Below the pieces are notes generated by a model. It ran no database searches and was not told the origin of the DNA. It was given only the letters and a program-made list of their open reading frames with translations. A program made the translations under genes and the position numbers. DNA of 64,000 nt from Clostridia bacterium (lineage in GTDB: Bacteria; Bacillota; Clostridia; TANB77; UBA1234), in NCBI GenBank assembly GCA_017518295.1, contig JAFWVJ010000020.1, positions 131,320-195,319 on the forward strand, in the 5' to 3' direction. This document shows positions 1,293 to 45,013 of the stretch, piece by piece (positions within the stretch are counted from its first letter, which is position 1; every line of letters starts with the position of its first letter).

Positions 1293-4200
1293 ATGAAAAA
1301 TAGAGAATTAATTGTAGTAGTTTTGACGATTGCATTGCTTGTTATTTTGGGAGCTTGTATTTTATTTAATCAAAATTTCAAAGGCGAACCAGGCAAAAAT
1401 ATAGTTGAAACTATTTTAAATCTTGAGCCTGAAACAAAAGTATACGCTCATTTGTCTGATGCTACTGTAACATACGATTCTGAAGACAATAGAATTATTA
1501 ATAAAGATGGTGTTGTTTTCAACATTGTATTTGCAGATGATGTGCCAGATGACTATGTTGAAAAAACGTTTAAAATTGAATGTAGAAATTCAAACGAAAG
1601 TGATGAGATAAAAACAGAAGTAATAAAAGAAGATAGCAAAAGCTACAAATTAAAGATAGCTGATACTCTTTCAGAAGGTGCTATTTATAATGTGGTTGAA
1701 TTAACTTCTGATGGAGTAAAAAAATGGGCTTTCCAAACAGAAAAAGAATTCAAAGTTGATTATACATATCCTGCTAATAAAGAATTCTTTAAAATAAATA
1801 GTGATCCAGAAATAAGATTCACTGATGAAATTCAAGATAATATTAAAGACTACTTATCAATTGAACCAAGTGTTAACGGATATTGGGAGAAGAAGTATAG
1901 TTCATATTATTATTTTAGACATCCAAATGATTATTTTAAAGATGGACAAGAATACACTATTAAGGTGAAAAAAGGCGCCAAAGATAAGTATGGAAATGAA
2001 CTAAAAGATGATTATTCGTTTTCATTTATCGCAAGAAGCAATACAAAAGAGAATAAAATAACAGACGTTGAATTAATTTCTGAAAATGTATTTAATATAA
2101 ACGAAAATGTGTCTTTTATATCATATATATTTATGAATGATGAAAGTAATAAAGGCATTAAGGTTGATGATAGTAAAATAAGAATATATAAATTGGATGG
2201 AACCAAGACATATATTGATTTACTAAGAAAAATAAATAAAACAAATAATATTGCAAAAGAACTATATGATAATAATGATTACAAACTAGTACTTGAAAAG
2301 AATGCATTAGATGTTGAATACGTTATACAAAGAGAAAAGTATATATCAAATAATTTCTATCAAGTAGATACTGATTTCAAATCAAGTAAAGCAGGATATT
2401 ATTTTGCATTATTAAAAATAAATGATTGTTATTCAATTAAGCCTTTCCAAATAAATGATGAAATAACTTCGGTGAACTTTTTAACTACTGGTGAGGCACT
2501 TGCTTTTTATAAGAATCCAAATAATAGCAATAATGTGGTAGATATTTTTGTTAATAATACTAGCGTTGGTAAAACAGATAATGATGGAAAAATTTATTTT
2601 AAAGATCTAAAGAAACAAGTAGTAGACTTTAATGAAGAATTCAACTATATTGAATTTAAATGCGAAACACCACTTGTCTTTGACATTACAAGTCAATTAA
2701 TTGCTAGAAACGGCTCTTGGGAAAACATTTATTACAGCGAATCATATGAAGATTATTATATTAATAGTGATGATACTAAAACGTTAGTTTATACTAGACA
2801 CAACAATGGATATATCTATTCGGATAGACCAGTATATAAAGTTGGTGAAACGGTTAAGTATTGGGGTTATGCAAGAAACAGAGTTTATGATGTTGATTCA
2901 GCGATTATAAAAATTTATTGTGAAGAAGATTTGTTAAAGAAAGATAATCTTACTTTAAATGAACAAGGATGCTTTACATATGACTTTGAATTAAAAGATG
3001 TAAATTCTGGTGCATATGTATATGCAGAGTTATATATAAATGGGGTTTATGTAGATAGAATTTCATCAAATATTCTTGATTATACAACAAGTGCATACTC
3101 AGTAAACGTCGAACAAGAGGCAAACGTATTTGTAACTGGCGAGACTACTAATGTAAAGATTACTGCTAATACTTATGATGGTATTCCATTAACTGACACA
3201 AAGTTTAATGTTGGAAATATTAGTAATGATAAATATGTTGATGTTGTTGCCGAAAATATTACTACAGATGCAAATGGTGTTGGATATGGAAAAGTAACAT
3301 TTAATGCGATAAACAATCAGCCTAACACTTATTCTAACTATGTACATGTTAGATATGATAACTCATATATTGATGGAGGAAGTTACACTATAAACTATAC
3401 TGTATATCCTTATATCAATAGAGCTTATATGAATGAAAAATATAATAAGGAAACTAATTCATACGAAATAACATTTGAAGAATACAATGTTAAAAATAGA
3501 AATACACCTGGAAATGATACAATTACTTTAGAAGCAAAAGCAAGATATGAACAAAGATATGAAAAGAGAAGATATTACGATGAATATTCAAAATCAGAAG
3601 AGATTGAATATGGATATAATCAAATAAGCATGCCGGAATATGACAAAACATTTGAAGTAAATATAGTAAATGGCAAAGGAAAAGTAACAATTCCAAACTG
3701 GTCTGATGGAAAGAATGAAAAAGGATATTATGCATTATTTGCTTATATAAATACTTCTGATGGAAGAAGACTTTCTTGTTCATCATATGAAAACACAGTT
3801 TATTTAGTATATGGATATGATATGTATGATGAAGACGAAGAAAAGGTTGTACTAAATGATGAAGATTTGGGAGAGTTTATTTCTCAAAATACCAAAAGCG
3901 TAATTACCAAATCTAATAATAAACCAATGTATCATATCTATATTGATTATAATAAGAACATGGAATATGGTAAGAAAGTAACAATTCCTCTTGTTAAAGG
4001 TGTTGGATCTGAATATATTGAAGGTGGTTCATCTTATTATATCGAAGAACCTGTTGAATTATCAGATGAAGAATACCAAGGAATTGAAGTATACACATTT
4101 ATAGTTTCGGGGCAAGGTACTGAATTAATTAAAAATGTGAATGGACCAATTTCATTTACTTATAAAGAAAAATATGGTGCCAATATAAGGATTTATCCAG

Positions 4201-6368
4201 TAATATATGATGGAGAAAAAATCTATGCGGCGAATTATCTTGATGTTGCTTATGGATGGGATGGCGTTGATTATCAATTAGAGCATAGATTTAGTAATTC
4301 ACTTATATTAGAATCAAAGCAATTATTGCTAGATATAGATGTTACATTTGATAAAGAAACTTACAAACCGGGAGAAGAAGCGATTATTAAAGTCAAAACA
4401 TCTCATGATGGTAAAGGTGTTTCAAGTGGTGTAAATTTATCTGCAATAGATTCAGCATATATAGATGAAAATGGAAGTAATTCATCATATATACAAGGTT
4501 CGTTATATAATCCATATAGTTTTAGCGCAAGTGAAATTTCTTCACACATGTTTTTAGAAGTTTTGATAAGAGATGCAGGCGGTGCTGGTGGAGGAGATGG
4601 AGAAGGCTATCGTACGGACATTTTAACTACAGCATTCTTTGAAAATATTATTACAGATAAAAATGGTGAAGCCACAATAAAAGTGAAACTTCCAGATAAT
4701 ATTACGGAATGGACATTAACCACTCAAGGTATTTCTGAAGATTATAGGGCTGCAAGTAAAGTATCAAAAATAATTGTTACAAAGGATTTCTATGTAGATT
4801 TAACTCATAAAGATAAGTATCTTGAGGATGAGTCATTTGCATTTAATATTAAAGCATTTGGTAGCAAATATGCAGGACAAAAATCAAAGCTTGAAGTAAG
4901 TATTTTAGATAGTAATAATAACGTGCTAGAAAGCGGCGATGCAGAAGTTACGGTTGGAAAAGTTGGAACATATAAGATAAAGAATCCTTTAAAAGAAGGG
5001 AAATATAAGATTAAACTATCTGGTAGTTTAAATGACTCTAAAGAAGCAAAAGATACTTTAATAAAAGAATTTGAAGTAAAGAAGAGCTTGCTAGAAATAT
5101 TAAGTAGAGAGACTTTAGAGCTAAAACCAAATGATGAAATTACAGTTGTTTCTCCTAGAGGCAGGATATATGTCTTAAATGAGGACGTTGAAAAGAATCT
5201 TAATATGCTATTTGAATTAATGTTTGTTCGAGGATATAGTTATAGAAATGACAGTGTAATAATAGGAAATGCAGCATATAAGCTATATACTTTATTAAGA
5301 AACGGAACAAATAATAATTCAAAACAGTATTATAACCTAGAAAAAATAGCCCAAGTCATGGATGGTGCTTCATATGATTATGACTTAGCTCTAAGAAATA
5401 TTGCAACAGGCATAATGAATTATCGATATGAAGTAAATATTTTTGATACAATAGAAAGTAATAAAGGTTTGTTTGCAAGATATTGGGCAGAAGCAGCTTG
5501 CGATAGACCGGTACTAAGACTACTAGATAAAGCGTATGAAGATGTAAGCAAAATAGAGGGAGCATATACAAAAGAGGAAGTAGCATATTTAGCTTTGGCA
5601 TTTGCTGAATTAGGAGATTTTGATAGTGCAGAATCATTATATGATATATTAAAGACAGCGATTACTGAAGAAAATGAAAGAGAATATGTTTTATTAACAA
5701 CACTTGCTATAAAGATTAATTTAAAAGATAGAGTAGATCTTTATAACAATTTAATGTCTAAAGATTTACCACCTGAAGTTAAGAATTACATTAAGCTATA
5801 TTATCTACAAAATGAAATTGTTAGAAATGTTAATGAAGGAAAACTTGTACTTAATGTTGATGGTAAAGATGAAGATATTAAAATTAATAACATAGGATAT
5901 ACTGATTATAAAGTAACTAACAAATCTAAATATATTGTTAAGAATCTAACAAATAATATTAAGATAATGTTAGATGATTATAAACCAGTTGATACTTCTA
6001 AATATGAATCAAAAGGATATTTAGATAAAACATATAACAATAAAAATGTAAAAGAAGGAAATATTGTTACTGTTACTTTAAAAGTAGATATTAGTAAGCT
6101 TCGTGAACAATATGGAAACTATGGTATCTATACTATTCAAGATGTTGTTCCAAATAATATGGTATTTGTAGATACAATAAATTGTGACCATTGCTGGTTT
6201 AGTGGAAAAGATGGACAAAAAGTTGAATTTACAGTTTATTCTTCTGATACCGATAAATATGCTACTGTTTCATACCATGCAAGAGTACAAAATAATGGTG
6301 AACAAAAAGAATCCGGTACAGTTCTTACAAACTTTAATAATGAAATAATAGATATTATTAAGTACTAA
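1293..6368 (+). CDS. very large (1691 aa) secreted/membrane-anchored protein, alpha-2-macroglobulin-like (MG-type beta domains plus helical alpha/alpha-toroid-like region), no thioester motif seen
   Basis: Good RBS (GGGGGA-N4-ATG). N-terminal signal/TM (LIVVVLTIALLVILGAC). Mostly beta-rich repeats. The region …RGYSYRNDSVIIGNAAYKLYTLL…LFARYWAEAACDRPVLRLL…AYLALAFAELGDFDSAESLYDIL resembles the thioester-domain helices of bacterial A2M proteins, but no CxEQ was found. Confidence 0.5.
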   Translation: MKNRELIVVVLTIALLVILGACILFNQNFKGEPGKNIVETILNLEPETKVYAHLSDATVTYDSEDNRIINKDGVVFNIVFADDVPDDYVEKTFKIECRNSNESDEIKTEVIKEDSKSYKLKIADTLSEGAIYNVVELTSDGVKKWAFQTEKEFKVDYTYPANKEFFKINSDPEIRFTDEIQDNIKDYLSIEPSVNGYWEKKYSSYYYFRHPNDYFKDGQEYTIKVKKGAKDKYGNELKDDYSFSFIARSNTKENKITDVELISENVFNINENVSFISYIFMNDESNKGIKVDDSKIRIYKLDGTKTYIDLLRKINKTNNIAKELYDNNDYKLVLEKNALDVEYVIQREKYISNNFYQVDTDFKSSKAGYYFALLKINDCYSIKPFQINDEITSVNFLTTGEALAFYKNPNNSNNVVDIFVNNTSVGKTDNDGKIYFKDLKKQVVDFNEEFNYIEFKCETPLVFDITSQLIARNGSWENIYYSESYEDYYINSDDTKTLVYTRHNNGYIYSDRPVYKVGETVKYWGYARNRVYDVDSAIIKIYCEEDLLKKDNLTLNEQGCFTYDFELKDVNSGAYVYAELYINGVYVDRISSNILDYTTSAYSVNVEQEANVFVTGETTNVKITANTYDGIPLTDTKFNVGNISNDKYVDVVAENITTDANGVGYGKVTFNAINNQPNTYSNYVHVRYDNSYIDGGSYTINYTVYPYINRAYMNEKYNKETNSYEITFEEYNVKNRNTPGNDTITLEAKARYEQRYEKRRYYDEYSKSEEIEYGYNQISMPEYDKTFEVNIVNGKGKVTIPNWSDGKNEKGYYALFAYINTSDGRRLSCSSYENTVYLVYGYDMYDEDEEKVVLNDEDLGEFISQNTKSVITKSNNKPMYHIYIDYNKNMEYGKKVTIPLVKGVGSEYIEGGSSYYIEEPVELSDEEYQGIEVYTFIVSGQGTELIKNVNGPISFTYKEKYGANIRIYPVIYDGEKIYAANYLDVAYGWDGVDYQLEHRFSNSLILESKQLLLDIDVTFDKETYKPGEEAIIKVKTSHDGKGVSSGVNLSAIDSAYIDENGSNSSYIQGSLYNPYSFSASEISSHMFLEVLIRDAGGAGGGDGEGYRTDILTTAFFENIITDKNGEATIKVKLPDNITEWTLTTQGISEDYRAASKVSKIIVTKDFYVDLTHKDKYLEDESFAFNIKAFGSKYAGQKSKLEVSILDSNNNVLESGDAEVTVGKVGTYKIKNPLKEGKYKIKLSGSLNDSKEAKDTLIKEFEVKKSLLEILSRETLELKPNDEITVVSPRGRIYVLNEDVEKNLNMLFELMFVRGYSYRNDSVIIGNAAYKLYTLLRNGTNNNSKQYYNLEKIAQVMDGASYDYDLALRNIATGIMNYRYEVNIFDTIESNKGLFARYWAEAACDRPVLRLLDKAYEDVSKIEGAYTKEEVAYLALAFAELGDFDSAESLYDILKTAITEENEREYVLLTTLAIKINLKDRVDLYNNLMSKDLPPEVKNYIKLYYLQNEIVRNVNEGKLVLNVDGKDEDIKINNIGYTDYKVTNKSKYIVKNLTNNIKIMLDDYKPVDTSKYESKGYLDKTYNNKNVKEGNIVTVTLKVDISKLREQYGNYGIYTIQDVVPNNMVFVDTINCDHCWFSGKDGQKVEFTVYSSDTDKYATVSYHARVQNNGEQKESGTVLTNFNNEIIDIIKY

Positions 6369-17237: not shown

Positions 17238-17257
17238 AAAAGGATGTGCGAAATTTT

Positions 17258-17671
17258 ATGAGTAGAACTACAGCAAGAGAATTGGCATTGAAAATTGTTT
17301 TTGAATTTTCGTTTCAAGATGAAGATGCAAAATCATTATATGAAAAATTTATTGATTCTCAAGAAGAATTAAATAGTGTGGACCAAGAAGATGAAAAGTT
17401 TATTTTAGAATTGATAGAAGGTATCAAATCTAATTTATCTAGTATAGATGAAAAAATAAAAGCACATCTTAAGGATTGGAATATAGAAAGAGTAAGCAAG
17501 GTCGATTTAGCTATTTTAAGACTAGCTATTTATGAGATTTTGTATAGGGAAGATATTCCGTTTAAAGTGTCTGTTAATGAAGCAGTTGAGCTTTCTAAAC
17601 AATATGGCGAAGACTCATCTCCAAGCTTTATTAACGGAGTGCTAGCAGAAATAATAAAAGAAAAAGAGTAA
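17258..17671 (+). CDS. nusB: transcription antitermination factor NusB
   Basis: MSRTTARELALKIVFEF… and the NusB fold signature. A GTG at 17246 is an alternative start. Confidence 0.85.
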   Translation: MSRTTARELALKIVFEFSFQDEDAKSLYEKFIDSQEELNSVDQEDEKFILELIEGIKSNLSSIDEKIKAHLKDWNIERVSKVDLAILRLAIYEILYREDIPFKVSVNEAVELSKQYGEDSSPSFINGVLAEIIKEKE

Positions 17672-17688: not shown

Positions 17689-18918
17689 TTGGAACAATTA
17701 AGCTTTGATTTAGATGATAAAAAACCATTTAGACCCACTCCACTTAGTGTAAGAGAACTGAATTTATATGTTAAAGATTTAGTAGATAGAGATGACTTTT
17801 TAAATAATGTATATGTTAAAGGCGAGATATCAAACTTTAAAAGGCATTATACAGGTCATCTATATTTTACTTTAAAAGATAAAGATTCACTTATAAAATG
17901 TGTAATGTTTAAATCATATACTAGCAACATTAAATTCGAACCACAAGATGGTATGCAAGTTGTTATATTAGGACAAGTTGCAGTATATGAAAGAGATGGT
18001 GTTTATCAAATATATGTTAAAGGAATGGAACAAGAAGGCTTAGGAGCATTATATGAAGCATATGAGAAACTTAAAGCTAAACTTGAAGCACAAGGACTAT
18101 TTGATGAAAGCCACAAAAAAGAAATACCACTTCTTCCTAAAGCAATTGGTGTAGTTACATCTAAAACCGGTGCAGTTATTAAAGATATTATTAATGTTAC
18201 TACTAGAAGATTTCCAAATGTAGTTATTAAATTATATCCATCTGCTGTTCAAGGAGTTGGAGCTGCCGAAACAATTGTAGAAGGAATTAAATATTTTAAC
18301 AAAGCAAAAAATGTAGATACAATTATTATTGCAAGAGGTGGAGGATCGTTAGAAGACTTATGGCCTTTTAATGAAGAAATTACAGCTCATGCAATCTATG
18401 AATCTGAAATCCCAATAATCTCGGCAGTAGGTCATGAAACAGATTTTACGATTGCAGATTTTGTGGCTGATTTAAGAGCTCCAACACCTTCTGCAGCAGG
18501 CGAACTTGCTGTGCCAGATTTAGAAGAATTAAAATGGAAGATTCAAAATATAAATCATAGACTTTCACTTTCACTAAATAAAAAGATTGAAAATATGAAA
18601 GCAAGATATGAAAAAGCGATGCGTTCTAAAGTTATGATGGATCCATTGTCTATGCTAAATGAAAGAAGATTAAAACAAGATTATTTAATTAAACAGTTAG
18701 CAAATAGTATTAAACTTGAATTAAAGAACAAAAAGATTGAACTTGTTAAAATTGTTTCTTCTTTAGATGGATTAAGTCCGTTAAAGACACTAACTAGAGG
18801 CTACGCTTTTGTAGAAAAAGAAGATGGAACTATTATTAAGTCAGCTAAAGATTTAGTAAAGAATGATGAAATAAAAATTACTTTAGCAGATGGCAATGTG
18901 GAGGCAAAAGTATTATGA
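17689..18918 (+). CDS. xseA: exodeoxyribonuclease VII large subunit
   Basis: OB-fold N-terminus (…VKGEISNFKRHYTGHLYFTLKD…) and the conserved XseA catalytic region. Confidence 0.9.
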   Translation: MEQLSFDLDDKKPFRPTPLSVRELNLYVKDLVDRDDFLNNVYVKGEISNFKRHYTGHLYFTLKDKDSLIKCVMFKSYTSNIKFEPQDGMQVVILGQVAVYERDGVYQIYVKGMEQEGLGALYEAYEKLKAKLEAQGLFDESHKKEIPLLPKAIGVVTSKTGAVIKDIINVTTRRFPNVVIKLYPSAVQGVGAAETIVEGIKYFNKAKNVDTIIIARGGGSLEDLWPFNEEITAHAIYESEIPIISAVGHETDFTIADFVADLRAPTPSAAGELAVPDLEELKWKIQNINHRLSLSLNKKIENMKARYEKAMRSKVMMDPLSMLNERRLKQDYLIKQLANSIKLELKNKKIELVKIVSSLDGLSPLKTLTRGYAFVEKEDGTIIKSAKDLVKNDEIKITLADGNVEAKVL

Positions 18919-19145
18919 AAAAAGATGAGAAATTAACATTTGAAGATGCAATGAATAGCTTAGAAGAGATTGTTGCAGAGCTTGAAAAAGGTGAGTTAAG
19001 CTTAGACCAATCTGTAGAAAAATTTAAAAAGGGTATGGAAATATCTAATTATTGTAATGATATGTTAGATTCTGCAGAAAAAAGTATAAAAGTATTACTT
19101 AAAGATCAAAATGGTGATATTGAAGAAGAACCTTTTGAGGCATAA
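18915..19145 (+). CDS. xseB: exodeoxyribonuclease VII small subunit
   Basis: 76 aa, FEDAMNSLEEIVAELEKGELSLDQSVEKFKKGMEL. Its start overlaps the xseA stop (ATGA). Confidence 0.85.
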   Translation: MKKDEKLTFEDAMNSLEEIVAELEKGELSLDQSVEKFKKGMEISNYCNDMLDSAEKSIKVLLKDQNGDIEEEPFEA

Positions 19146-19159
19146 ATTTGGAGGATAAA

Positions 19160-19609
19160 ATGAGAGAACTACTTACTAATAAGTGGATGTGGATACCACT
19201 TGCTACATGGCTTTTAGTTCAAATTTTTAAATTAATAGTTGAAGTCTTTACAGCAAAAGGTAAAAAGATAAACTTTAGAAGAATATTAGGTGCTGGAGGA
19301 ATGCCAAGTAGCCATACTGCTTGTATTACTGCTCTTGCAACATCTATTGGTATATCTGAAGGATTTGGATCACCAGTATTTGCACTTGCTGTAGTTTTTT
19401 GCTTTATAGTTATGTATGATGCAGCAGGTGTTAGAAGAGCAGCTGGAAAACAAGCTGCTGTCTTAAATAAAATTATTGAAAGCGATGAAGATATAAATGT
19501 TCAAGAAAAATTAGTAGAATTATTAGGACATACTCCTTTACAAGTAATTGTTGGAGCTATAGTTGGTATAATAATTGGATTTACTTTTTCTATGATTTGG
19601 GATTTATAA
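19160..19609 (+). CDS. DUF212 (divergent PAP2 / acid phosphatase-vanadium haloperoxidase-related, YuiD-like) membrane protein
   Basis: …GGMPSSHTACITALATSIG…YDAAGVRRAAGKQA… is the DUF212 signature. It occupies the position where ispA sits in the canonical OLE locus. Confidence 0.7.
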   Translation: MRELLTNKWMWIPLATWLLVQIFKLIVEVFTAKGKKINFRRILGAGGMPSSHTACITALATSIGISEGFGSPVFALAVVFCFIVMYDAAGVRRAAGKQAAVLNKIIESDEDINVQEKLVELLGHTPLQVIVGAIVGIIIGFTFSMIWDL

Positions 19610-19615
19610 AAGGTA

Positions 19616-19647
19616 AAAAGAAGTGTTTTATAGCACTTCTTTTTTGA
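19616..19647 (+). terminator. rho-independent terminator
   Basis: AAGAAGTGTTTTATAGCACTTCTT hairpin plus a T6 run. Confidence 0.7.
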
Positions 19648-19684
19648 TTTTAGTCATATCAAGATAGTAAAGAATATGAGATAA

Positions 19685-19713
19685 TTTGCAAATTATGATA
19701 TTTCATGGTATAA
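19685..19713 (+). promoter_or_regulatory. sigma-A type promoter for the ncRNA (TTGCAA-17-TATAAT)
   Basis: TTGCAAattatgatatttcatggTATAAT read directly from the sequence. Confidence 0.55.
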
Positions 19714-19719
19714 TACGTA

Positions 19720-20330
19720 GCGGTGATGTGTTATCCTAGTTATTGCTAAGGGTTGCTAAGGTGGGGCTAAAAATCCACTTAAAAGAGCACAATCGATGAA
19801 GTTTCTGGGTAGATGCTTGCGACGCCCAGTCGTGGGTGCTATCTGGGAGTAAAGAGTTAAGGGCGATCCGTAATGGCATACGGGCGTTGACCCTTTTCTC
19901 ATGGAGACACGTATTCTTTCTAAGCTAATTACCTTAATTAAAACAGCAGAGAATACGCGAAAACCTGCGAGGCCTTAGTTTTAGGTAGACTTAAGGTACA
20001 CAGAGTAGCTTTCCTTGAGTGAAATTGGTGAATGTATTACTGAAACCAACTTTGCAAAAGAGGATAAACAACTATTTAGCAGTTTGAGGAAATCTTCTAG
20101 GACATTTGCATCAAAAGCAAGATATACTTGGGATTGAGGTGTGGACTAAGTGGTAATTCAGACTCTTATGTCGGTGACGACTAAGATACTTCTTTTAAAG
20201 GGGAACCACTAAGATGGCGATATCTTAGCAAGAAGTAGGGAAATCCTTCTGGACCTAAGCCATAAAATTAACTAAGTATATTATCACTATAATTTATTAT
20301 ATTGATTACAGCCAATATAAAAAATATTGG
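19720..20330 (+). ncRNA. ole: candidate OLE (ornate large extremophilic) RNA, ~600 nt; boundaries approximate
   Basis: ~600-nt ORF-free, GC-enriched, stem-rich region with its own promoter. It lies exactly in the conserved OLE position: nusB-xseA-xseB-(ispA slot)-OLE-oapA. The downstream gene has the OapA features. No covariance model was run. Confidence 0.5.
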
Positions 20331-20576
20331 TTGTTTTTTATTATTATATACTTCTATGTATATACTATTTCAAAATAATGCGTCGACTTCTAAAACTACT
20401 AAATACTATACTTATAACAGCAACACATAAATTTTTGGGACCCGGCTTCCGCTATGCTACGCGCCCAAAAATTTCCTAGTTGCTGTAAAATTCTAGTATT
20501 AAGTAGTTGGAAGTCTTTGGCGGTTATTTTTCCATAGTATATACATAGAAGTTTATATAAAAAAGGAGAATTATAG

Positions 20577-21128
20577 ATGGAAAAAAAGATTAAGAAAAAA
20601 GAAAAAACAGGTCAAAAAGGATGGCTTTTAATCATATTTACAGTCACTTTTGCACTTTCTGCAGTATTTAATATGCTTTCGACTGAATTAGTAGAAAATG
20701 TAAATAATCTAGTTCTTTCTTTTATTTTATTAATTTTAGTTATATCTGTTGGTATTATGTTTGATTTAATTGGAACAGCTGTAACGGCGGCAGATGAAGT
20801 ACCATTTCACGCAATGGCATCAGATAAAAAGAAGGGAGCAAAAGAATCACTTCTTTTGATTAAAAATGCAGATAGAGTTGCTAATGTATGTGCTGATGTA
20901 ATTGGAGATATTTGTGGAGTACTATCTGGTGCAATTGCAGCTTTAATAGCTGGAAATATAGCTAAAATGCTAGGCCAGAAAGATATTACAGTAACAACTT
21001 TGCTAGTTACAGCAACGGTTACAGCACTTACTGTATGGAGTAAGGGGCTTTTTAAGCAGGTAGCTATCAAAAATAGTACGTCAATTATTAGAATTTTGGG
21101 TAGAATAATAGCAGTATTTAGCCGATAA
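20577..21128 (+). CDS. oapA: OLE-associated membrane protein OapA-like (4 TM, DxxxD motif)
   Basis: 183 aa (~20 kDa) with four predicted TM helices and ADVIGDICG (DxxxD) in TM3. It sits immediately downstream of the candidate OLE RNA, as in described OLE loci. Confidence 0.55.
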   Translation: MEKKIKKKEKTGQKGWLLIIFTVTFALSAVFNMLSTELVENVNNLVLSFILLILVISVGIMFDLIGTAVTAADEVPFHAMASDKKKGAKESLLLIKNADRVANVCADVIGDICGVLSGAIAALIAGNIAKMLGQKDITVTTLLVTATVTALTVWSKGLFKQVAIKNSTSIIRILGRIIAVFSR

Positions 21129-21199
21129 AGGTTGAACTTTACATAATATTGTGATATACTTTTATGTGGTATGTAAATATTTCATAGGAGGATGAACAA

Positions 21200-21697: not shown

Positions 21698-22239
21698 CGG
21701 AGGTAAATATTATGCTAAACATGTCAGTAAATCAAATGCGGGATTTCCTGATCGGAAAGATTCGTGAAACCTGCAAGACCAAGAACCTCTATGAAGAAGA
21801 GAGGGAAAAGAGAGCAGATGTGCTTCGTGATATCGTACAAAGTGAGCTTTTTGCTTATATGTACGATCGTCACGATACCAGATGGCTTCTGGAGCAGGCC
21901 AAAATCACCCGTTCGGAAGCTTTGCGCTACTTAAGCCTTAATTCTATGCGTATTGAGAGCACTCGAAAGAGTTATCTGATGACGCAAGACCAGATTCGGG
22001 CTCTTAACAGTTCGTTGAAAGCATACAATTCAATGAATGTTTCGAGTCATGACTTCGTTGAGCGTGAAGTTCGGGAAGCCAAGGAAGAGCTGAGTGAAGA
22101 AATAAGGCAGGCTGAAGTTCGAGCTGAGCAATATGGAAAATTGTTGAAAGAGGCAGAATATCAGGAACGGCTGCAGTATGTGATGCACCGTTTGGAAGGG
22201 ATCATCGTAGATCCTGAATATTTTGCATACCTGAAGTAA
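21694..22239 (+). CDS. hypothetical protein (second gene of the cassette)
   Basis: 181-aa helical/charged protein. GC-richer codons (ctggagcaggcc, cgtttggaagggatc). Followed by a strong terminator. Confidence 0.5.
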   Translation: MTEVNIMLNMSVNQMRDFLIGKIRETCKTKNLYEEEREKRADVLRDIVQSELFAYMYDRHDTRWLLEQAKITRSEALRYLSLNSMRIESTRKSYLMTQDQIRALNSSLKAYNSMNVSSHDFVEREVREAKEELSEEIRQAEVRAEQYGKLLKEAEYQERLQYVMHRLEGIIVDPEYFAYLK

Positions 22240-22270
22240 AGGAAGGGGCTGATGCCCCTTCCTTTTTTAT
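22239..22270 (+). terminator. rho-independent terminator
   Basis: AAGGAAGGGGCTGATGCCCCTTCCTTTTTT. Confidence 0.8.
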
Positions 22271-36620: not shown

Positions 36621-39600
36621 ATGACAAATACTATGAAAAGAAGTATTATTTCGATTTTTGTTTTAGTTTTAGTTTTCTGCATGAGTGCAGTTGCTTTTGC
36701 TGATGACTATAACGGACAAGAAATATTCAACTTGACAGCTACTTACAATGGAAAAACATTAAAGAATGGTGAAACCATTAAAGTTTATTCCACATCACCT
36801 AGAACAGTTTCAATAGATACTAATCCAAAATATGTAGATAACACATTAGTTGTTGGCTATTGTTGGGATGGTGGCAATTGGAATGATACAACTGGTAAAA
36901 AATCAATTTCATTTACACTTCCAAATTTTGCTAATGGATCAACACATACTCTAGATATGGAAGGTTATATTGAACATAATAAAAACTTACCAGAAGGTGA
37001 CCCTGAAAGATATGTAGGAAATACAAACTTTGTAACAGTTTATTTTAAATTTGAAGAAACAACTCGTGAAATTAATTTAAAAGATGGAAGCAAAACAATT
37101 GCACATCAAGCAACAATTCAAAAACAACCTGGTGATACTCTTACTTTAGTTGGAACATCAAATATTGGAATTAATAAAATTCAATATATTTGGAATGGAA
37201 ATTCAAGTGATGTTAAAACAATCAATGGAGAATCAGGAACAATTACAGTTCCAAATATGGCAGAAGGTCAAAAGATTACTTTAGAAGCAGTTTGCCAATC
37301 AAAAGATAATAACTGGTCTTCTAGTAAAACATACTATATTCAAAGACCTGCAGCTAATGAAACAGTTACACTTTCACTTTCAGATACAGGTAGTAACGTA
37401 AAAGCTACTCCAACTGTAACTAATGGTACATTTGATCATTATGAATATCATTGGGATAGTGATGTAACCTCAACTCAAACAAGTAGTACATTTGGTTATC
37501 CAGTTGCAACTGGAAAACATATATTATATGTAAAAGCAGTTACTAAGAATGGTGTAAAATCTGCTGAAAAGAGTGTAACAGTAAATGTTGCTGAAGCAGA
37601 ATCATTAACATTATCTTTAAAAGATACAGGAAGCAATATTAAAGCAACTGCAACTGTAACTAATGGTACATTGGATCATTTCCAATATCATTGGGATAGT
37701 GATATTAGTTCAAATCAAACAAGTGATACATTTGGTTATCCAGTAGCAACTGGATCACATACATTATATGTAAGAGCAGTTTCTAAGAAAGGAAATATGT
37801 CTCCAGAAAAGAGCATAACAGTTAATGTAGCTGCTCCAGAAACTGTAACAGTATCTTTACAAGATAAAGGTACATATGTAAAAGCAACACCAACAGTTCA
37901 AAATGGTACATTTGATCATTTTGAATATCATTGGGATAATGATGCTAGTTCAAATCAAACAAGCGATCAATTTGGATATCCAGTAGCAACTGGACAACAC
38001 ATTTTATATGTAAAAGCAGTTACTAAAAAAGGAACAAAATCTGCTGAGAAAAATATAACAATTAATGTTAAAGAAGAGGAAGTAACAGGAACAATTTCTG
38101 CTTCAGTTCCTTCAGGAGCATTAAGTGAAACACAAAGCAAACCAACTAGTGTTGAACCTGGAACAGAAATCACAGTTAAATTTAATCCAGAATCTAACTT
38201 TACTAAATTTGAATATAACTGGGATGATGGTGCATTCCAAAACTTACCTTCAAATAAAAAGATTTCAATTCCAAACTTTGAACCTGGTACAACACATAAA
38301 TTAACAATTAGAGGAACATTAAAGAATGGAAATATAGTAACAAAGATTTACTATATTACAATTCCAAAGAAAACATTAGAAGGACAAGTTGATGCAAAAT
38401 TAAACAATAAAACATTAACAAATGGATCAACAACTACTGTTGAAGGAAATGAATCTATTGATTTAGTTGGAACACCAACAGCAAATATTAAATCTTTAGT
38501 TTATTCTTGGGACAATGGTTCTGAACAAACAGTAAATGGTGCTTCAGCAAAAACTAATGTAGTTGCAAAACAAGGTGAGACACATACTTTAAAAGTTAAA
38601 GCAATTTTAACAGATAATACAGAAACATCATCTAAATCATATAAATTTGTTTTAAGCGGTGAGATGGAAGATGGTGGAGAATTAGATATAGATCCATGGA
38701 TGAGAGAAAATGATGATGCAGAAGGATTATTAGTTGCTCTTAGAAATAGATCTGATGAAGATAAAGCAAATAAAAACTTCTATATGATTGATGAAGAAGT
38801 TATTTACTTAGTAGATTATATGAATGCTGGAAAAGATATTAGTGAAGAAGTTAAACTTGTATTAAATATCCCACTTTCATTCAAGATTGTAAGCAGCGAT
38901 GGTGGTGTAGTTGATAATGATAAGAAAACAATTACTTGGACATTCCCAAATGGAGTTAAAGAAAAAGCTGCAGATACAAAAGAAGTAAGACTTAAATATA
39001 CAGCTTTATCTAAGAAGACATTAAAGAGTGAAATGATTTATCCACAAGCAGTAATTTATAAGAAAACAAAAGCAATGGATTATTCAGCAGTTATTAATTG
39101 CATCTATTTAGATGAAGATACAAAATTTAGTGATACTCATGAACCATATATGTATGGTGACCTTGAAGCTCCAACATTTAGACCTGATGAAGGTATATCT
39201 AGAGCTGAGGGTGCTATGGTTCTATTAAGAATCTTTGGTGAAAACTATACAAATGTTAAGACAATTACTACAAAATATAGTGATATTGAAGATACATACT
39301 ATGTAGCTAGACAAGCTATTACAAAAGCAACTCAATTAAATATCATGTCAGGATATCCAGATGGTTCATTTAAACCAAATGGTAAGATGACAAGAGCTGA
39401 GTTCATGAGAGTTATTGCAAGCTATGTTGCAGAAAGTGCAGATAAGAAAGGCTTAGAACTAAAAGATACAGATGCACTTGTAATTTATAAGAATACAAGT
39501 AATAAGAACCATTGGTCAAATCCATATGTAACATTACTTGCTAGATTAAATATGACAAATGCATCAAGCAAGGAGAAAGATCTAAGAGTAGATGAAACAA

Positions 39601-39791
39601 TAACAAGAGCTGAGGTAGCTCAACTATGTAATTTCTATCTATTCAGAGCTCCTGCCAAAGTAACTTCTAGCACAAATATGCAATTTACAGATGTTAATAG
39701 AAGCCATAAATTAATTGGAGATATTGTTGAAGCAACGAGAGAATCTCATTCATATATGGTAACATCTGATGGCAAAGAAGTAATTAAATAA
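36621..39791 (+). CDS. S-layer-type surface protein A: signal peptide, N-terminal conserved domain, three tandem ~80-aa Ig-like repeats plus further beta repeats, conserved C-terminal module with three SLH domains
   Basis: Signal peptide MKRSIISIFVLVLVFCMSAVAFA. The repeat …HWDSDxxSxQTSxTFGYPVATGxHxLYVxAVxKxG… occurs 3 times. C-terminal FRPDEGISRAEGAMVLLRIFG…, FKPNGKMTRAEFMRVIASYV… and ITRAEVAQLCNFYLFRA are SLH motifs. Strong RBS GAGGAGG. Confidence 0.8.
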   Translation: MTNTMKRSIISIFVLVLVFCMSAVAFADDYNGQEIFNLTATYNGKTLKNGETIKVYSTSPRTVSIDTNPKYVDNTLVVGYCWDGGNWNDTTGKKSISFTLPNFANGSTHTLDMEGYIEHNKNLPEGDPERYVGNTNFVTVYFKFEETTREINLKDGSKTIAHQATIQKQPGDTLTLVGTSNIGINKIQYIWNGNSSDVKTINGESGTITVPNMAEGQKITLEAVCQSKDNNWSSSKTYYIQRPAANETVTLSLSDTGSNVKATPTVTNGTFDHYEYHWDSDVTSTQTSSTFGYPVATGKHILYVKAVTKNGVKSAEKSVTVNVAEAESLTLSLKDTGSNIKATATVTNGTLDHFQYHWDSDISSNQTSDTFGYPVATGSHTLYVRAVSKKGNMSPEKSITVNVAAPETVTVSLQDKGTYVKATPTVQNGTFDHFEYHWDNDASSNQTSDQFGYPVATGQHILYVKAVTKKGTKSAEKNITINVKEEEVTGTISASVPSGALSETQSKPTSVEPGTEITVKFNPESNFTKFEYNWDDGAFQNLPSNKKISIPNFEPGTTHKLTIRGTLKNGNIVTKIYYITIPKKTLEGQVDAKLNNKTLTNGSTTTVEGNESIDLVGTPTANIKSLVYSWDNGSEQTVNGASAKTNVVAKQGETHTLKVKAILTDNTETSSKSYKFVLSGEMEDGGELDIDPWMRENDDAEGLLVALRNRSDEDKANKNFYMIDEEVIYLVDYMNAGKDISEEVKLVLNIPLSFKIVSSDGGVVDNDKKTITWTFPNGVKEKAADTKEVRLKYTALSKKTLKSEMIYPQAVIYKKTKAMDYSAVINCIYLDEDTKFSDTHEPYMYGDLEAPTFRPDEGISRAEGAMVLLRIFGENYTNVKTITTKYSDIEDTYYVARQAITKATQLNIMSGYPDGSFKPNGKMTRAEFMRVIASYVAESADKKGLELKDTDALVIYKNTSNKNHWSNPYVTLLARLNMTNASSKEKDLRVDETITRAEVAQLCNFYLFRAPAKVTSSTNMQFTDVNRSHKLIGDIVEATRESHSYMVTSDGKEVIK
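37360..38080 (+). repeat. three tandem ~240-bp coding repeats inside SLH gene A
   Basis: Protein repeats ETVTLSLSDTGSNVKATPTVTNGTFDHYEYHWDSD…, ESLTLSLKDTGSNIKATATVTNGTLDHFQYHWDSD… and ETVTVSLQDKGTYVKATPTVQNGTFDHFEYHWDND…. Confidence 0.8.
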
Positions 39792-39798
39792 CATACTA

Positions 39799-39828
39799 AA
39801 AAAGAGGTAGGAAACTACCTCTTTTTTG
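39799..39828 (+). terminator. rho-independent terminator
   Basis: AAAGAGGTAGGAAACTACCTCTTT hairpin plus a T-run. Confidence 0.75.
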
Positions 39829-39894
39829 CGCCTTTTTTGGCCCAAAAACCTATAAATAGAGAAGATCTAAAAAACATAAAAAAAATTTAAATAA

Positions 39895-39937
39895 GTTTAC
39901 ATAAAGTATTGATTTTTTATTGGGAATATATTATAAT
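39895..39937 (+). promoter_or_regulatory. promoter of SLH gene B: GTTTACATAAAG motif immediately upstream of TTGATT-17-TATAAT
   Basis: Motif at 39895-39906, -35 at 39909-39914 and -10 at 39932-39937, all read directly from the sequence. Confidence 0.55.
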
Positions 39938-39994
39938 ATTAACAGTCGGGTGCGAAAAAGCACAAAAGTTAAAACTATAGGAGGTTTTTAAAAT

Positions 39995-41926
39995 ATGAGT
40001 AACGTAAGAAGAAAGATTTCATTAGGTTTAGTTATGTTACTAGTTGTTATGGCTATTTCCGTAGCTTTTGCAGATGATTATAACGGAAAAGAAATATTCA
40101 ACTTAACAGCTACATTAGGTGGCAAAACATTAAAGAATGGTGAAACAGTTGAAATATCACCTGATTCATCTAGAACAATTAATATTACAACAAATCCAAA
40201 GTATGTAGATAATACTTTAGTAATAGGATATGCTTGGGATGGTGGAGAATGGAATGATGCAACAGGAAGTGCTACAAGATCATTTACTATTCCAAATTTT
40301 GCTACTGGTACTCAACACCATGTAGATATGGAAGCATATATTGAACACAATAAAGATTTACCAGAAGGTAGTGCAGACAGATATGTTGGTAACTCAAACT
40401 TTGTAACAGTTTATTTTAACTTTGTTGATAAGGTTGCTACTAACGTAGAAGTAAATGTTAAAGATGGAAACACAACTCTTGCTCACAAATCAACAGTAGA
40501 AAAAGAACCAGGAACAACTTTAACAGCTACTGGTTCAACAAATGTTGGAACAATTGATAAATTCCAATACATTTGGGATGGAAACAAAAATGATGTTAAG
40601 ACAATTAATGGTTCTACAGGAACAATTACAATTCCAAACGGAGAAGCAGGAAAAACAAAAACACTTGAAATTACTGCACATTCAACAGATGGAGTTTGGT
40701 CTCCAAGCAAAACATATTATATTAAACTTAAATCAACAAAACCAATTGATGATGAATTAATCATTGAAGATTGGATGAAAGAAAACAAAGATATCGAAGC
40801 ATTAGCAGTTTCTTTAAGAAACGATAGCGATGAATATGAAAAATCTAACAAAAATATGTACGCTTTAAAAGAAGAAGTTGTTTACTATGTAGATTACAAA
40901 AATGGTGGAAAAGATATTAATAACGAAGTTAAACTAGTTCTTGAATTACCACTTGATTTTGATGTAGTAGATGCTTTTGGCGGAACAGTAGACAAAGAAA
41001 AGAAGACAATTACATGGACATGGCCTGATGGATTAGAAAAAGGACAATCAGGAACAAAAGTAGTTAAGATTAAATATGTTGCACTTAGCAAATCAAGCAA
41101 AAAATCTGAAACTATTTACCCAGTAGCAAAGATTTATGTTTCAAACTCTAAGACACCAAAGGATACATCAGCTGTTATCAATTTAATTTTCAAAGATGAA
41201 GATACAGAAATTGCTGATGAACATTATCCATACATGATTGGTGACTTAATGGAAGATAAATCTATTACACCAACATTTAGACCAGATGAAAGCATTTCTA
41301 GAGCAGAAGGTGCTTTAGTTCTTGCAAGAATTTTTGGTATTAACTATACAGGTACACAAGTTGCTGGAAATGAATTTTCAGATCTTAAAGATACTTATTT
41401 ATCAGCACAACAAGCTATCGTTGCAAGTTCTAAGATGGGCTTAATTTCTGGTTTCCCAGATGGCACATATAGACCAAACGATAAGATGACAAAAGCTCAA
41501 TTTATGAGAATTATAGCAAGCTATGTAGAAGTTAGAGCTGAAGAAGATGATGTTAAAGGATTAGAAATCAAAGAAGATGATATGGCAATTAAAGTTTATA
41601 AAAATCCTACAAATGTTTATATGACAGGTTCTACATCTACAACAAATCATTGGGCAATTCCATATGTTACATTACTAGTAAGAATTAATATGACTCCAGT
41701 TACAAGCTCACACAAAGATTTAGGATTAGATGAAGAAATTACAAGAGCAGAAGTTGCTCAATTAGTAAACTTCTTCTTATTTAGAGCACCAGCTGAAGAA
41801 GGAAAAGTTCAATTTAGTGATGTTTCAAAGAATCACAAATTATATAGAGATATACTTGAAGCTACAATGCCTGCTCATTCATACACATTAACACATGAAG
41901 GCACAGAAGTTAGAGTAGATGACTAA
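39995..41926 (+). CDS. S-layer-type surface protein B (paralog of A; shorter repeat cassette; three C-terminal SLH domains)
   Basis: N-terminal ~130 aa and C-terminal ~330 aa are highly similar to gene A (FADDYNG[QK]EIFNLTAT…KTLKNGET… / …FRPDE[GS]ISRAEGA[ML]VL[LA]RIFG…). Signal peptide present. Confidence 0.8.
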   Translation: MSNVRRKISLGLVMLLVVMAISVAFADDYNGKEIFNLTATLGGKTLKNGETVEISPDSSRTINITTNPKYVDNTLVIGYAWDGGEWNDATGSATRSFTIPNFATGTQHHVDMEAYIEHNKDLPEGSADRYVGNSNFVTVYFNFVDKVATNVEVNVKDGNTTLAHKSTVEKEPGTTLTATGSTNVGTIDKFQYIWDGNKNDVKTINGSTGTITIPNGEAGKTKTLEITAHSTDGVWSPSKTYYIKLKSTKPIDDELIIEDWMKENKDIEALAVSLRNDSDEYEKSNKNMYALKEEVVYYVDYKNGGKDINNEVKLVLELPLDFDVVDAFGGTVDKEKKTITWTWPDGLEKGQSGTKVVKIKYVALSKSSKKSETIYPVAKIYVSNSKTPKDTSAVINLIFKDEDTEIADEHYPYMIGDLMEDKSITPTFRPDESISRAEGALVLARIFGINYTGTQVAGNEFSDLKDTYLSAQQAIVASSKMGLISGFPDGTYRPNDKMTKAQFMRIIASYVEVRAEEDDVKGLEIKEDDMAIKVYKNPTNVYMTGSTSTTNHWAIPYVTLLVRINMTPVTSSHKDLGLDEEITRAEVAQLVNFFLFRAPAEEGKVQFSDVSKNHKLYRDILEATMPAHSYTLTHEGTEVRVDD

Positions 41927-41943
41927 TTTATAGTATAGAATAA

Positions 41944-41978
41944 TAAAACCCCGTATGCTTTTGCATACGGGGTTTTTG
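41944..41978. terminator. bidirectional rho-independent terminator
   Basis: AAAACCCCGTATGCTTTTGCATACGGGGTTTT lying between convergent genes. Confidence 0.8.
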
Positions 41979-41985
41979 TTGGGAT

Positions 41986-42936
41986 TCAACGATGACCAGT
42001 GCCGCTACCAGTGTTTCCGGTAGGAGAACGATGGCCGGTACCACTACCAGACTCAGTGTTCTGAGTGGTGGGAGTACGATGACCAGTGCCGCTACCAGAT
42101 TCGCTGGGCTGAGAGGTCCAACCAGTGAAGTTGTCTCCACCAGTCTGAGCATTTCCGTTGTCGGAGCCGCTCGTGGACTCGCTACCAGTGGGGGTACGAT
42201 GACCAGTGCCGGAACCCGTTTCCTCAGTGTGAGTGGGTTCACGATGACCGGTACCAGTACCAGTTTCTTCTTCAGGAGTAGTTTCTTCAACTACTTCTTC
42301 AGTAGGAACTTTTTCCTCAGGCTGGGTAGCCGTGGTCGGAGTATGGAGCACGGTCTGCTCCAGAAGTTCGAGACCATACACGCGCTCACCATCTTTGATG
42401 ATGAAGCTAACGCGAACGGCCCGGCCGCCAAGATTGCCTTCCAGGACAGTAGTCGTATGCTTGCGAGCATTACGATTCCAAATCCTGTGGCTCATCTGAC
42501 CTTCATAGCCTTTCTTGGTAGAAGCAAACAAAGTTGCATCGAAGCAGCTCTGAGCGTCCCCACCAAAAGCTTCGTAAGCTTCCTGGTCGAACCAGTAAGC
42601 ATTCACGAAGTTGTAAGACTTGAGATTACCAGCAGTGGTGAACCGGATTTTCCGATCCAATCTGTTGGTACCGAGGCAGTTAGCCGTGGCAGTAGAAGCT
42701 TTGACATAGGAAGACTTTTGCTTCATGTCAGCAGCTTCACTACGCTCGAGTTCAACCTTTTCAGTGAAGAATCCACCAAAGATTCTATCTTCACGGTTCT
42801 TTTTGGCAGCAAGTACTTCGATAGAAGTGTTTTCACACTTAATGCAGAAGTCTTCCGCCAGTGCGGTCGTAAAGCAAGCGAGAATCAGAGAAACCAGAAC
42901 CATGGAGATCTTGATGGTGTTACGAGCAGTATTCAT
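41986..42936 (-). CDS. GC-rich secreted repeat protein 1: signal peptide, ~200-aa N-domain, Thr/Pro/Glu linker, C-terminal (G)TGHR and GGDNFTGW repeats
   Basis: Start ATG at 42936 (MNTARNTIKISMVLVSLILACFTTALA) with AAAGGA RBS. The upstream in-frame extension in the ORF track lacks an RBS. Codon usage is far GC-richer than the surrounding genes. Confidence 0.65.
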   Translation of the reverse strand: MNTARNTIKISMVLVSLILACFTTALAEDFCIKCENTSIEVLAAKKNREDRIFGGFFTEKVELERSEAADMKQKSSYVKASTATANCLGTNRLDRKIRFTTAGNLKSYNFVNAYWFDQEAYEAFGGDAQSCFDATLFASTKKGYEGQMSHRIWNRNARKHTTTVLEGNLGGRAVRVSFIIKDGERVYGLELLEQTVLHTPTTATQPEEKVPTEEVVEETTPEEETGTGTGHREPTHTEETGSGTGHRTPTGSESTSGSDNGNAQTGGDNFTGWTSQPSESGSGTGHRTPTTQNTESGSGTGHRSPTGNTGSGTGHR

Positions 42937-43114
42937 TTTGACGATCCTTTCTTTTTTTGGCTCTTGGCCATAATTTTTTTCCCAACAAATGAGTGTATAT
43001 ACAATTGTATTCCACACAAAATAAGCTAAATGCAAATGCAAAATAGCTAGAAAATGTGGCTGTTGATTGTTTTCCACGTTTACAAATGTTGGTACTAAAC
43101 AATATTATATCACA

Positions 43115-43128
43115 AATTTACATAAAAG
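43115..43128. promoter_or_regulatory. AAATTTACATAAAAG motif; on the minus strand it reads TTTTATGTAAATTTGTGATATAAT, i.e. motif at -35 with an extended -10
   Basis: Directly upstream (minus strand) of GC-rich gene 1. Confidence 0.55.
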
Positions 43129-43151
43129 TCACTAAAATAGCCCAATTAAAG

Positions 43152-43190
43152 GCAAAAATAAGAGGCTTTGCACAATTGTGCAAAGCCTCA
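43152..43190 (-). terminator. rho-independent terminator of GC-rich gene 2
   Basis: GAGGCTTTGCACAATTGTGCAAAGCCTC hairpin with a T-run on the minus strand. Confidence 0.75.
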
Positions 43191-43211
43191 TGGAACTTCC
43201 TATAGATTAGA

Positions 43212-44396: not shown

Positions 44397-44520
44397 TTTG
44401 TAATTCCTTTCTGGAGGCGTGTCGCATCTAGGCAACACTTGGTTATCATTAGACCCCCTACAATCATGGATAAAGAGAAAACCACCTGGTACCACATAAC
44501 CTATAAAAATCCCTTAAATG

Positions 44521-44613
44521 GGCATACCAATTGTTATTACCCAAATACGCGATCTTTAAACGCCGAAGCATAAAAAAGATCCACGAAAATGTGGAATAAC
44601 AATTGGTATACCC
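44521..44613 (-). promoter_or_regulatory. long inverted repeat (15-16-bp arms, ~55-nt loop) in the 5' leader of GC-rich gene 2
   Basis: cATACCAATTGTTATTa … gGAATAACAATTGGTATac. It lies between the candidate promoter motifs (44655-44690) and the start at 44396. Confidence 0.4.
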
Positions 44614-44654
44614 ACCATCGAGATTATTTAAGTTAGCATATTTATTATACAATA

Positions 44655-44690
44655 AATTTACATAAAATTCAATATATTTTACATAATTTT
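44655..44690. promoter_or_regulatory. two tandem motif copies AAATTTACATAAAATT / TTTTACATAATTTT in the divergent promoter region
   Basis: Exact instances in the 617-bp intergenic region between GC-rich gene 2 (-) and SLH gene C (+). Confidence 0.5.
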
Positions 44691-44882
44691 TGTTTATTTT
44701 TTACCTAATTTTTGCTTATATATAGCCAGTTTGACTTATAATAGGTTACTGTATTATTTAAACCAGATTTTGGAGAAAAAATAGAATAAAAAAGTAAAAA
44801 AATCACATCAAAATATTATAAGATTTTATAAAAAAATATGTTCAAAAAGTTGCTTTAAATTTATCCCAAAACTACGGATGAT

Positions 44883-44940
44883 AAAGTTACATAAAATTAT
44901 TACAAAAATATTACAAAAACTATTGCTTTTTTACATAATC
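44883..44940. promoter_or_regulatory. motif copies AAAGTTACATAAAATT and TTTTTTACATAATC upstream of SLH gene C
   Basis: Exact instances. Followed by TGATATTATGTG (extended -10-like). Confidence 0.5.
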
Positions 44941-45013
44941 CGTGATATTATGTGCAACGCACCCCTAGAAAAGGGGAAAACAGTAATAAGATAAGAAATT
45001 ATAGGAGGTTTTT

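Follow-up and report, generated by a model that had tools for sequence, protein, structure and literature searches.

Organization of the ole-oapA locus

We analysed a 64,000-nucleotide (nt) stretch of contig JAFWVJ010000020.1 from a Clostridia bacterium (assembly GCA_017518295.1, positions 131,320 to 195,319 of the forward strand), referred to throughout as the window, and focused on the interval that carries a predicted gene for the OLE RNA (ole) together with the gene for its presumed partner, the membrane protein OapA. The genes of this interval are arranged in the order nusB-xseA-xseB-DUF212-ole-oapA-orphanA-orphanB-rpmE, with a palindromic element in the ole-oapA spacer (Table 1). For comparison we used 80 species-level genome loci encoding homologues of the window OapA, as well as further metagenome contigs outside these 80 loci (L081-L083, L095 and L096); individual loci are given by such L numbers. 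The relatives' loci come from rumen and gut metagenome-assembled genomes, and the host of the window is an uncultured Clostridia bacterium of a rumen or gut metagenome. Hosts of OLE are Bacillota that are typically anaerobic or extremophilic, and a protein identical to the window OapA is deposited as a hypothetical protein of 'MAG: Clostridia bacterium'.

Table 1. Positions of the genes and predicted signals in and around the ole-oapA locus (window coordinates; aa, amino acids)
Feature	Position	Strand	Evidence or remark
nusB	17246-17671	+	Pfam NusB, 131 bits
xseA	17689-18918	+	Pfam Exonuc_VII_L, 317 bits
xseB	18915-19145	+	Pfam Exonuc_VII_S, 76 bits
DUF212 / divergent PAP2-family membrane protein, in the canonical ispA slot	19148-19609	+	PF02681, 162 bits
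Terminator-like hairpin between DUF212 and ole	19615-19644	+	13-bp stem, then T-run
Putative sigma-70-type promoter of ole, TTGCAA-17-TG-n-TATAAT	19686-19714	+	10/12 matches, extended -10
OLE RNA gene, full-length type minus one distal stem extension	19707-20303	+	RF01071, 392.4 bits
Terminator-like hairpin directly after OLE	20308-20334	+	11-bp stem and T-run
Imperfect palindrome of 228 nt in the ole-oapA spacer	20337-20564	.	Inverted repeats found in the sequence
Perfect 19-bp inverted repeats	20350-20368 and 20534-20552	.	Bound a 165-bp interior, 20369-20533
oapA ribosome-binding site, AAGGAG, 8 nt 5' of the ATG	20563-20568	+	Read from the sequence
oapA, 183-aa four-helix membrane protein	20577-21128	+	DxxxD encoded at 20895-20909
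Promoter-like site of the orphan pair	21132-21160	+	Own site, upstream of the pair
Orphan A, 165 aa	21200-21697	+	Overlaps orphan B; slot of canonical dxs
Orphan B, 181 aa	21694-22239	+	Followed by rpmE
Strong terminator after the orphan pair	22238-22265	+	At the 3' end of the pair

Identification of the OLE RNA gene

A scan of the whole window against Rfam matched the OLE model, RF01071, at 19707-20303 on the + strand, with a score of 392.4 bits (E = 9e-112) compared to a gathering threshold of 50 bits. The match covers model positions 1-616, the full length of the RNA, and bears out the OLE RNA proposed in a preliminary description of this DNA. RNase P RNA, transfer-messenger RNA (tmRNA) and a group II intron, named there as what the region might be instead, gave no match at gathering thresholds anywhere in the window; the sole Rfam match at gathering score in the 64-kb window besides OLE was a tRNA (62967-63038). 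The same description had reported a region of ~600 nt that is enriched in GC and free of open reading frames (ORFs), and this was likewise observed: no ORF of at least 50 aa is present on either strand in 19610-20326, and the GC content over 19600-20199 is 0.385-0.41 compared to about 0.30 (about 0.29-0.31) in the flanks. The single ORF in the gap, 50 aa at 20327-20479, lies within the spacer palindrome and is probably spurious.

We aligned the window OLE with 23 OLE sequences from related loci; OLE scores of relatives against the Rfam model range over 380-526 bits. Invariant sequence blocks were common to the window and these relatives, and 82 of the 128 consensus base pairs in the 24-sequence alignment showed compensatory double substitutions. 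The window RNA, at 597 nt, compares with 526-583 nt in a shorter neighbouring clade and 640-678 nt in Oscillospiraceae. Compared to L082, nucleotide identity was 92% across OLE and 76-80% across the neighbouring protein-coding genes, indicating that the OLE RNA is under strong purifying selection. With respect to published subtypes, variant 1 of Fernando and Breaker 2024 is said to have shortened P7-P9 and often to miss the OapB site, and their variant 2 reportedly lacks P7 and P8 wholly. Set beside variant 1, the window OLE has lost one distal extension (46 model positions) and has an intact OapB site. Assignment to variant 2 was ruled out, as hairpins at model positions 198-260 and 268-277 are present.

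The region had also been described as equipped with a promoter, and a sigma-70-type site with an extended -10 element was indeed found (Table 1), from which ole transcription would start near 19721. The hexamer pair occurs at the same position in L081, L082, L002, L001, L004, L019, L036 and L067. Since the hexamers are positionally conserved in many relatives, a dedicated ole promoter appears to be common among them and not peculiar to the window locus. The terminator-like hairpin that follows OLE is also found in L081 and L082. In L081, which has an empty site in place of the spacer palindrome, the distance from the ole terminator to the ribosome-binding site of oapA is only about 45 nt; because it is so short, oapA would most likely be expressed by read-through of the ole terminator.

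The downstream membrane protein as OapA

The oapA ORF starts 274 nt 3' of the OLE end. OapA is marked by four helices, a DxxxD motif, weak similarity to CNNM and a CorB-like transmembrane structure (PMC11332333). In the window protein, four segments are hydrophobic and residues 107-111 read DVIGD; the aspartates D107 and D111 were invariant in 16 aligned homologues, down to 44% identity. Its only Pfam match was CNNM (PF01595), at 28.8 bits compared to a cutoff of 28.4. An AlphaFold2 model of the protein (predicted local distance difference test score, pLDDT, 82) was all-helical, with long helices at residues 4-41, 45-71, 98-132 and 138-165, and the top six PDB matches returned by Foldseek were CNNM transmembrane domains of CorB/CorC (7M1T, 7CFF, 7CFG and 7M1U; probability 0.97-1.00, TM-score 0.36-0.48). 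Structure 7M1U is also the top match reported for the OapA model of Halalkalibacterium halodurans (PMC11332333). The predicted product of 20577-21128 thus displays every mark of OapA that could be tested.

The genomic distribution of the protein is consistent with this assignment. A search of 5.8 billion proteins returned 1567 homologues at E <=1e-5, and OLE was directly upstream of the homologue gene in 76 of the 80 loci; three of the four remaining loci contain <300 nt upstream of the oapA homologue. The canonical cluster reads nusB-folD-xseA-xseB-ispA-ole-oapA-dxs-tlyA-ppnK-argR-recN, and one of the related loci, L047, has the order nusB-xseA-xseB-ispA-ole-oapA-dxs-tlyA-ppnK-argR-recN, in which Pfam confirmed ispA (210 bits), dxs (419 bits) and an FtsJ/TlyA-type methyltransferase. 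Since L047 preserves the canonical order and its OapA is 45% identical to that of the window, the window protein is tied to the textbook OapA by position and homology. The preliminary description's reading of this 183-aa protein, with four transmembrane segments and DxxxD, as OapA is therefore sustained by a family that follows OLE in nearly all loci, canonical-order ones included.

That the 183-aa protein is instead a truncated Mg2+ transporter of the MpfA/CorC type, or that the OLE copy is a decaying relic, is very improbable: although the Pfam CNNM match sits at threshold and the best structural matches are CorB/CorC transporters, the protein is short (183 aa), spans the membrane with four helices instead of three, lacks CBS and CorC_HlyC domains, carries the DxxxD motif that CNNM domains are missing (PMC11332333) and is encoded directly behind OLE in 76 of the 80 loci, and in OLE itself compensatory changes are seen and conservation exceeds that of the coding genes next to it.

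Several observations weigh against the OLE-OapA identification. The 46-position distal extension of one long stem in the model has shrunk to a single base in the window OLE, the hairpin at model positions 201-260 is altered (AT-rich, with a large loop), and the score of 392 bits compares to 526 bits in a canonical-context relative. The connection to the textbook OapA was made through position-based orthology with L047. Lastly, neither OapB (YbzG) nor OapC (YbxF, L7Ae family) was found among the scanned ORFs of the 64-kb window, and the full particle is therefore not confirmable from the window. No evidence contradicting the identification was found. Taken together, the findings discussed above indicate that 19707-20303 is almost certainly a genuine OLE RNA gene beside its oapA partner, and that the two are predicted to constitute a working module representing the core of an OLE ribonucleoprotein. 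As such, the ole-oapA pair of the window is an ordinary addition to an already known RNA-protein system, and knowledge of the family is unchanged by it.

A predicted OLE particle

By analogy with H. halodurans, the OLE RNA would fold, dimerise and be bound by an OapA dimer that holds the RNA at the cell membrane, and the resulting particle may aid the cell in coping with cold, short-chain alcohols, excess Mg2+ and poor carbon sources. The RNA also appears to keep the protein-docking features known from that species, namely the primary and secondary OapB sites and the OapC kink-turn segments. For docking of OapB, stem P13 must carry a GNRA tetraloop and a bulge of one nucleotide, and P14.1 must supply a second GNRA loop (PMC7936274). 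At the level of sequence, the model alignment places a GUGA tetraloop and a bulged U on its stem at 20170-20190, corresponding to the primary site, and a GCGA tetraloop at about 20217-20220, corresponding to the secondary site. The OapC kink-turn region of OLE is described in PMC9723947. Two conserved segments, AUCGAUGAAG and GGGAGU, align in the window OLE and may form the kink-turn there.

With respect to the protein components, ybxF (oapC) lies just after rpoC in Bacillus. In the window, the product of the gene that follows rpoC (58629-59746) is 278 aa long and contains a domain similar to the N-terminal one of copper amine oxidases, and no L7Ae-family gene was present among the scanned window ORFs.

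A palindromic element in the ole-oapA spacer

The 274-nt spacer between ole and oapA is largely occupied by the imperfect palindrome, whose predicted RNA fold has a free energy of -96 kcal/mol (z = -10.7). An element in the same place, with its interior inverted, was found in L082 (2367-2567) and L086 (1553-1753), from a species whose OapA is 86% identical to that of the window. The window interior matched that of L082 at 163 of 165 positions once reverse-complemented, as compared to 121 of 176 in the same orientation. In L081 the site is empty (about 3978-4000), exactly as deletion between two TATAT direct repeats would leave it, and it retains 14 nt of the left inverted repeat; a possible TATAT target-site duplication is ambiguous. 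The interior is conserved more than its own flanks (p = 0.03) and more than OLE (p = 0.0009).

Searches for further copies were negative. No second copy of the palindrome turned up in the window or across the 80 loci. When 86 loci were screened with an 18-nt pattern from its terminus, the sole matches were L082 and L084-L086, and a scan of JGI metagenomes returned the same locus only. No match was found in plasmids, and comparison with Rfam gave only sub-threshold hairpin artefacts, mir-15 (28 bits compared to 57) and U5. The spacers of other relatives have different contents: those of L087-L090 are unrelated, about 55-140 nt long and with small hairpins only; L002 and L083 have another element, whose inverted repeat is perfect over 23 bp; L095 and L096 have GC-rich hairpins; and in L093 and L094, some 300 nt before oapA, a repeat containing GGGGACGG occurs three times in tandem. 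Relatives were also examined for the L002-type element in flipped form, and their spacers proved unrelated.

Several further uncultured Clostridia carry, between ole and oapA, long perfect palindromes and tandem units of ~52 nt that contain GGGGACGG. Members of this family were located in L093 and L094 and at L017 3378-3458, L020 9670-9753, L034 9676-9756 and 763-962, and L038 9646-9755 and 1067-1149. Copies also occur elsewhere within the L017, L034 and L038 loci, and the family looks like a dispersed repeat.

Two explanations were considered for the element. We regard it as rather likely that the palindrome is a passive, lineage-specific insertion of mobile or repeat DNA, resembling a miniature inverted-repeat transposable element (MITE) and with no dedicated role, and that its inverted state in L082 and L086 goes back to either another insertion event or a single recombination across the repeats. 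In support of such an insertion, spacer content differs completely among close relatives, the high conservation of the interior relative to flanks and OLE fits recent spread, and GGGGAC palindromes elsewhere in L017, L034 and L038 behave as dispersed repeats. In contrast, confinement of the element to a single locus in every search discussed above speaks against it, and the 14 nt of left inverted repeat kept by L081 are unexpected for a simple insertion.

It is unlikely that the element instead acts as an invertible DNA switch, in which the 165-bp core would flip between the 19-bp inverted repeats and thereby alter expression of oapA. In favour of a switch, the segment that is inverted in L082/L086 relative to the window ends precisely at the inverted repeats, the size of the element and the length of its repeats resemble those of known clostridial switches, and the interior is unusually conserved. 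In addition, a promoter with 10/12 matches (TTGAAA, 17 nt, TATATT) spans the right junction toward oapA in the L082 orientation, with none there in the window orientation; however, promoter-like matches are common in AT-rich DNA, and a scan found 4 where 1.7 were expected. Moreover, the two orientations were seen only in different species, and both of the two contigs with an identical OapA, among the matches listed, have the window orientation. No recombinase gene was found among the scanned ORFs of the 64-kb window, the interior is near-palindromic so that inversion alters little of the sequence, and the closest relative by OapA (L087, 94%) is without the element. More specifically, we consider it improbable that the 165-bp core (20369-20533) serves as a phase-variable switch in the oapA leader, tuning production of the membrane anchor of OLE independently of the OLE RNA; if true, on/off control of the OLE particle would be reported here for the first time. 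Taken together, these findings suggest that the spacer is probably hypervariable and collects palindromic mobile or repeat DNA, an insert being probable and an invertible switch less likely.

Gene neighbourhood of ole-oapA

The preliminary description had recognised nusB, xseA and xseB upstream of ole and a DUF212 membrane protein in the slot of ispA, and Pfam supports each of these assignments (Table 1), the DUF212 gene being directly upstream of ole. The genes nusB-xseA-xseB were found upstream of OLE in 24 of the 80 loci, nine of which also have DUF212. In these nine (L002, L003, L005, L008-L012 and L014), as well as in five metagenome contigs (L081-L083, L095 and L096), the order is xseB-DUF212-ole-oapA, and all 14 have the upstream order priA-def-fmt-asp23-asp23-like-nusB-xseA-xseB-DUF212-ole-oapA in common. 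None of ispA, dxs, tlyA, ppnK, argR and recN was detectable in the 64-kb window, and tblastn with the L047 ispA and dxs returned nothing there. Across the 80 loci, ispA was present in 13 and dxs in 27, with other neighbours in the rest. Published accounts describe dxs as only 'often' a neighbour of ole and rank neighbours by frequency (PMC10898510, PMC12265935).

The window arrangement is therefore clade-wide among uncultured rumen and gut Clostridia and one of several ole contexts among relatives; it represents a lineage-level rearrangement of the canonical cluster and not a change in the ole-oapA module. The preliminary description had suggested that such a rearranged context bears on hypotheses linking OLE to ispA and dxs. 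The variant context itself is confirmed, but since the arrangement is clade-wide and contexts are mixed among relatives, it is of little help in judging a link between OLE and isoprenoids.

We also considered whether the exchange of neighbours could be meaningful, with DUF212, as a divergent PAP2-type membrane phosphatase, replacing IspA as the link between OLE and polyprenyl phosphates such that the isoprenoid theme is retained. DUF212 occupies the ispA slot directly 5' of ole in the 9 species-level loci and 5 contigs, whose OapA proteins are 53-88% identical to that of the window; Pfam classes DUF212 as a divergent PAP2 family, and the PAP2 superfamily includes undecaprenyl-diphosphate phosphatases. 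Against this, DUF212 has no known substrate and a literature search on its function yielded nothing relevant, ole is set apart from DUF212 by a terminator-like hairpin and a promoter of its own, both ispA and DUF212 are missing upstream in about 50 of the 80 loci, and adjacency in one clade can be mere inherited gene order. We therefore view a functional substitution of IspA by DUF212 as unlikely.

In the neighbouring clade (L004, L006-L014), a gene for a SleB-like cell-wall hydrolase and the spoIIIA operon follow directly after oapA (about 600 nt-7 kb downstream), and several loci of that clade have efp within about 7 kb after oapA. The SleB-like/spoIIIA block fits the published note of sporulation genes as frequent neighbours of ole; in the lineage of the window, it is absent within 64 kb.

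The orphan gene pair

In the window's lineage (OapA at least 80% identical), oapA is followed by two overlapping orphan genes and then by rpmE, and L002 and L081-L084 likewise have two genes of comparable size between oapA and rpmE. The pair was found only in this close lineage and always in this position. Both proteins are charged and helical, the genes have a GC content of 36-45%, and no Pfam, NCBIfam, PHROGs or PADLOC family scored above noise. A homologue search of the same 5.8 billion proteins returned 4 clusters for one orphan and 1 for the other, with essentially none outside the lineage. The AlphaFold2 model of the second orphan is all helical, and with a pLDDT of 67.7 it was too poor for a fold search. 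The preliminary description had spoken of a foreign two-gene cassette in place of dxs. An orphan pair does occupy the dxs slot; a foreign origin is suggested by its raised GC content and very narrow distribution and is plausible but unproven, with no phage or defence match above noise.

Other genes of the window

The interval 36621-47209 encodes three large proteins with S-layer-homology (SLH) domains (1056, 643 and 731 aa), whose N-terminal signal regions are almost the same. Three ORFs on the minus strand (363, 427 and 62 aa) are interspersed among them; of these, the 363- and 427-aa ORFs were scanned and gave no family match. A 1691-aa alpha-2-macroglobulin-like protein (A2M, MG2 and Big_5 domains), of a type uncommon in Clostridia, is encoded at 1293-6368.

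Significance and comparison with known systems

Few conserved bacterial RNAs that still await a biochemical function are as large as OLE, and each well-characterised locus adds comparative data. In the low-GC rumen and gut Clostridia considered here, the ole-oapA core appears to be kept under strong selection even though ispA and dxs are gone from its vicinity, which supports the view that oapA alone is obligatorily linked to ole. The DUF212/PAP2-like membrane protein is a recurrent neighbour of ole and hence a candidate for gene-association surveys, and the ole-oapA spacer, as a probable hotspot of palindromic insertions, is relevant to models of oapA expression.

The cwpV and flgB switches of Clostridioides difficile are short invertible DNA switches. 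The spacer element resembles them in having inverted repeats of ~19 bp, a 165-bp core, a location in a 5' leader and two observed orientations, the latter between species only. It differs from them in that no recombinase was found among the scanned window ORFs, inversion is known only between species and the core is itself palindromic. Like typical MITEs, the element has terminal repeats, but the searches described above found a single copy rather than multiple dispersed copies.

Compared to the CNNM-family Mg2+ transporters MpfA, CorB and CorC, the predicted OapA has a similar transmembrane fold (7M1T, 7CFF, 7CFG and 7M1U), is without the cytosolic CBS or CorC domains, and has a fourth helix and DxxxD. 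MpfA itself is reported to be anticorrelated with OLE (PMC11332333). With OapA, the window protein shares the position after ole, small size, four helices, DxxxD, weak CNNM similarity and a CorB-like predicted fold, and it is just about 45% identical to the canonical-context OapA of L047.

Relative to the canonical ole cluster, nusB, xseA and xseB lie upstream in the same order and the ole-oapA core is intact; in contrast, DUF212 stands in place of ispA, and the orphan pair followed by rpmE-DUF1385-prmC-whiA stands in place of dxs-tlyA-ppnK-argR-recN. Relative to the OLE family model, the window RNA is without one distal stem extension (46 model positions) and has an AT-rich hairpin with a large loop at positions 201-260. 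In H. halodurans, ole is reportedly transcribed as part of a single polycistronic RNA (PMC12265935), whereas the ole gene of the window is preceded by a promoter-like site of its own and lies between two terminator-like hairpins. Nevertheless, the window RNA shares with the OLE of H. halodurans, whose structure was solved by cryo-electron microscopy (cryo-EM), the conserved sequence blocks, the helices, the GNRA loops and bulge and the segments of a putative kink-turn region, and it likewise has oapA immediately downstream in a host belonging to the Bacillota (Clostridia).

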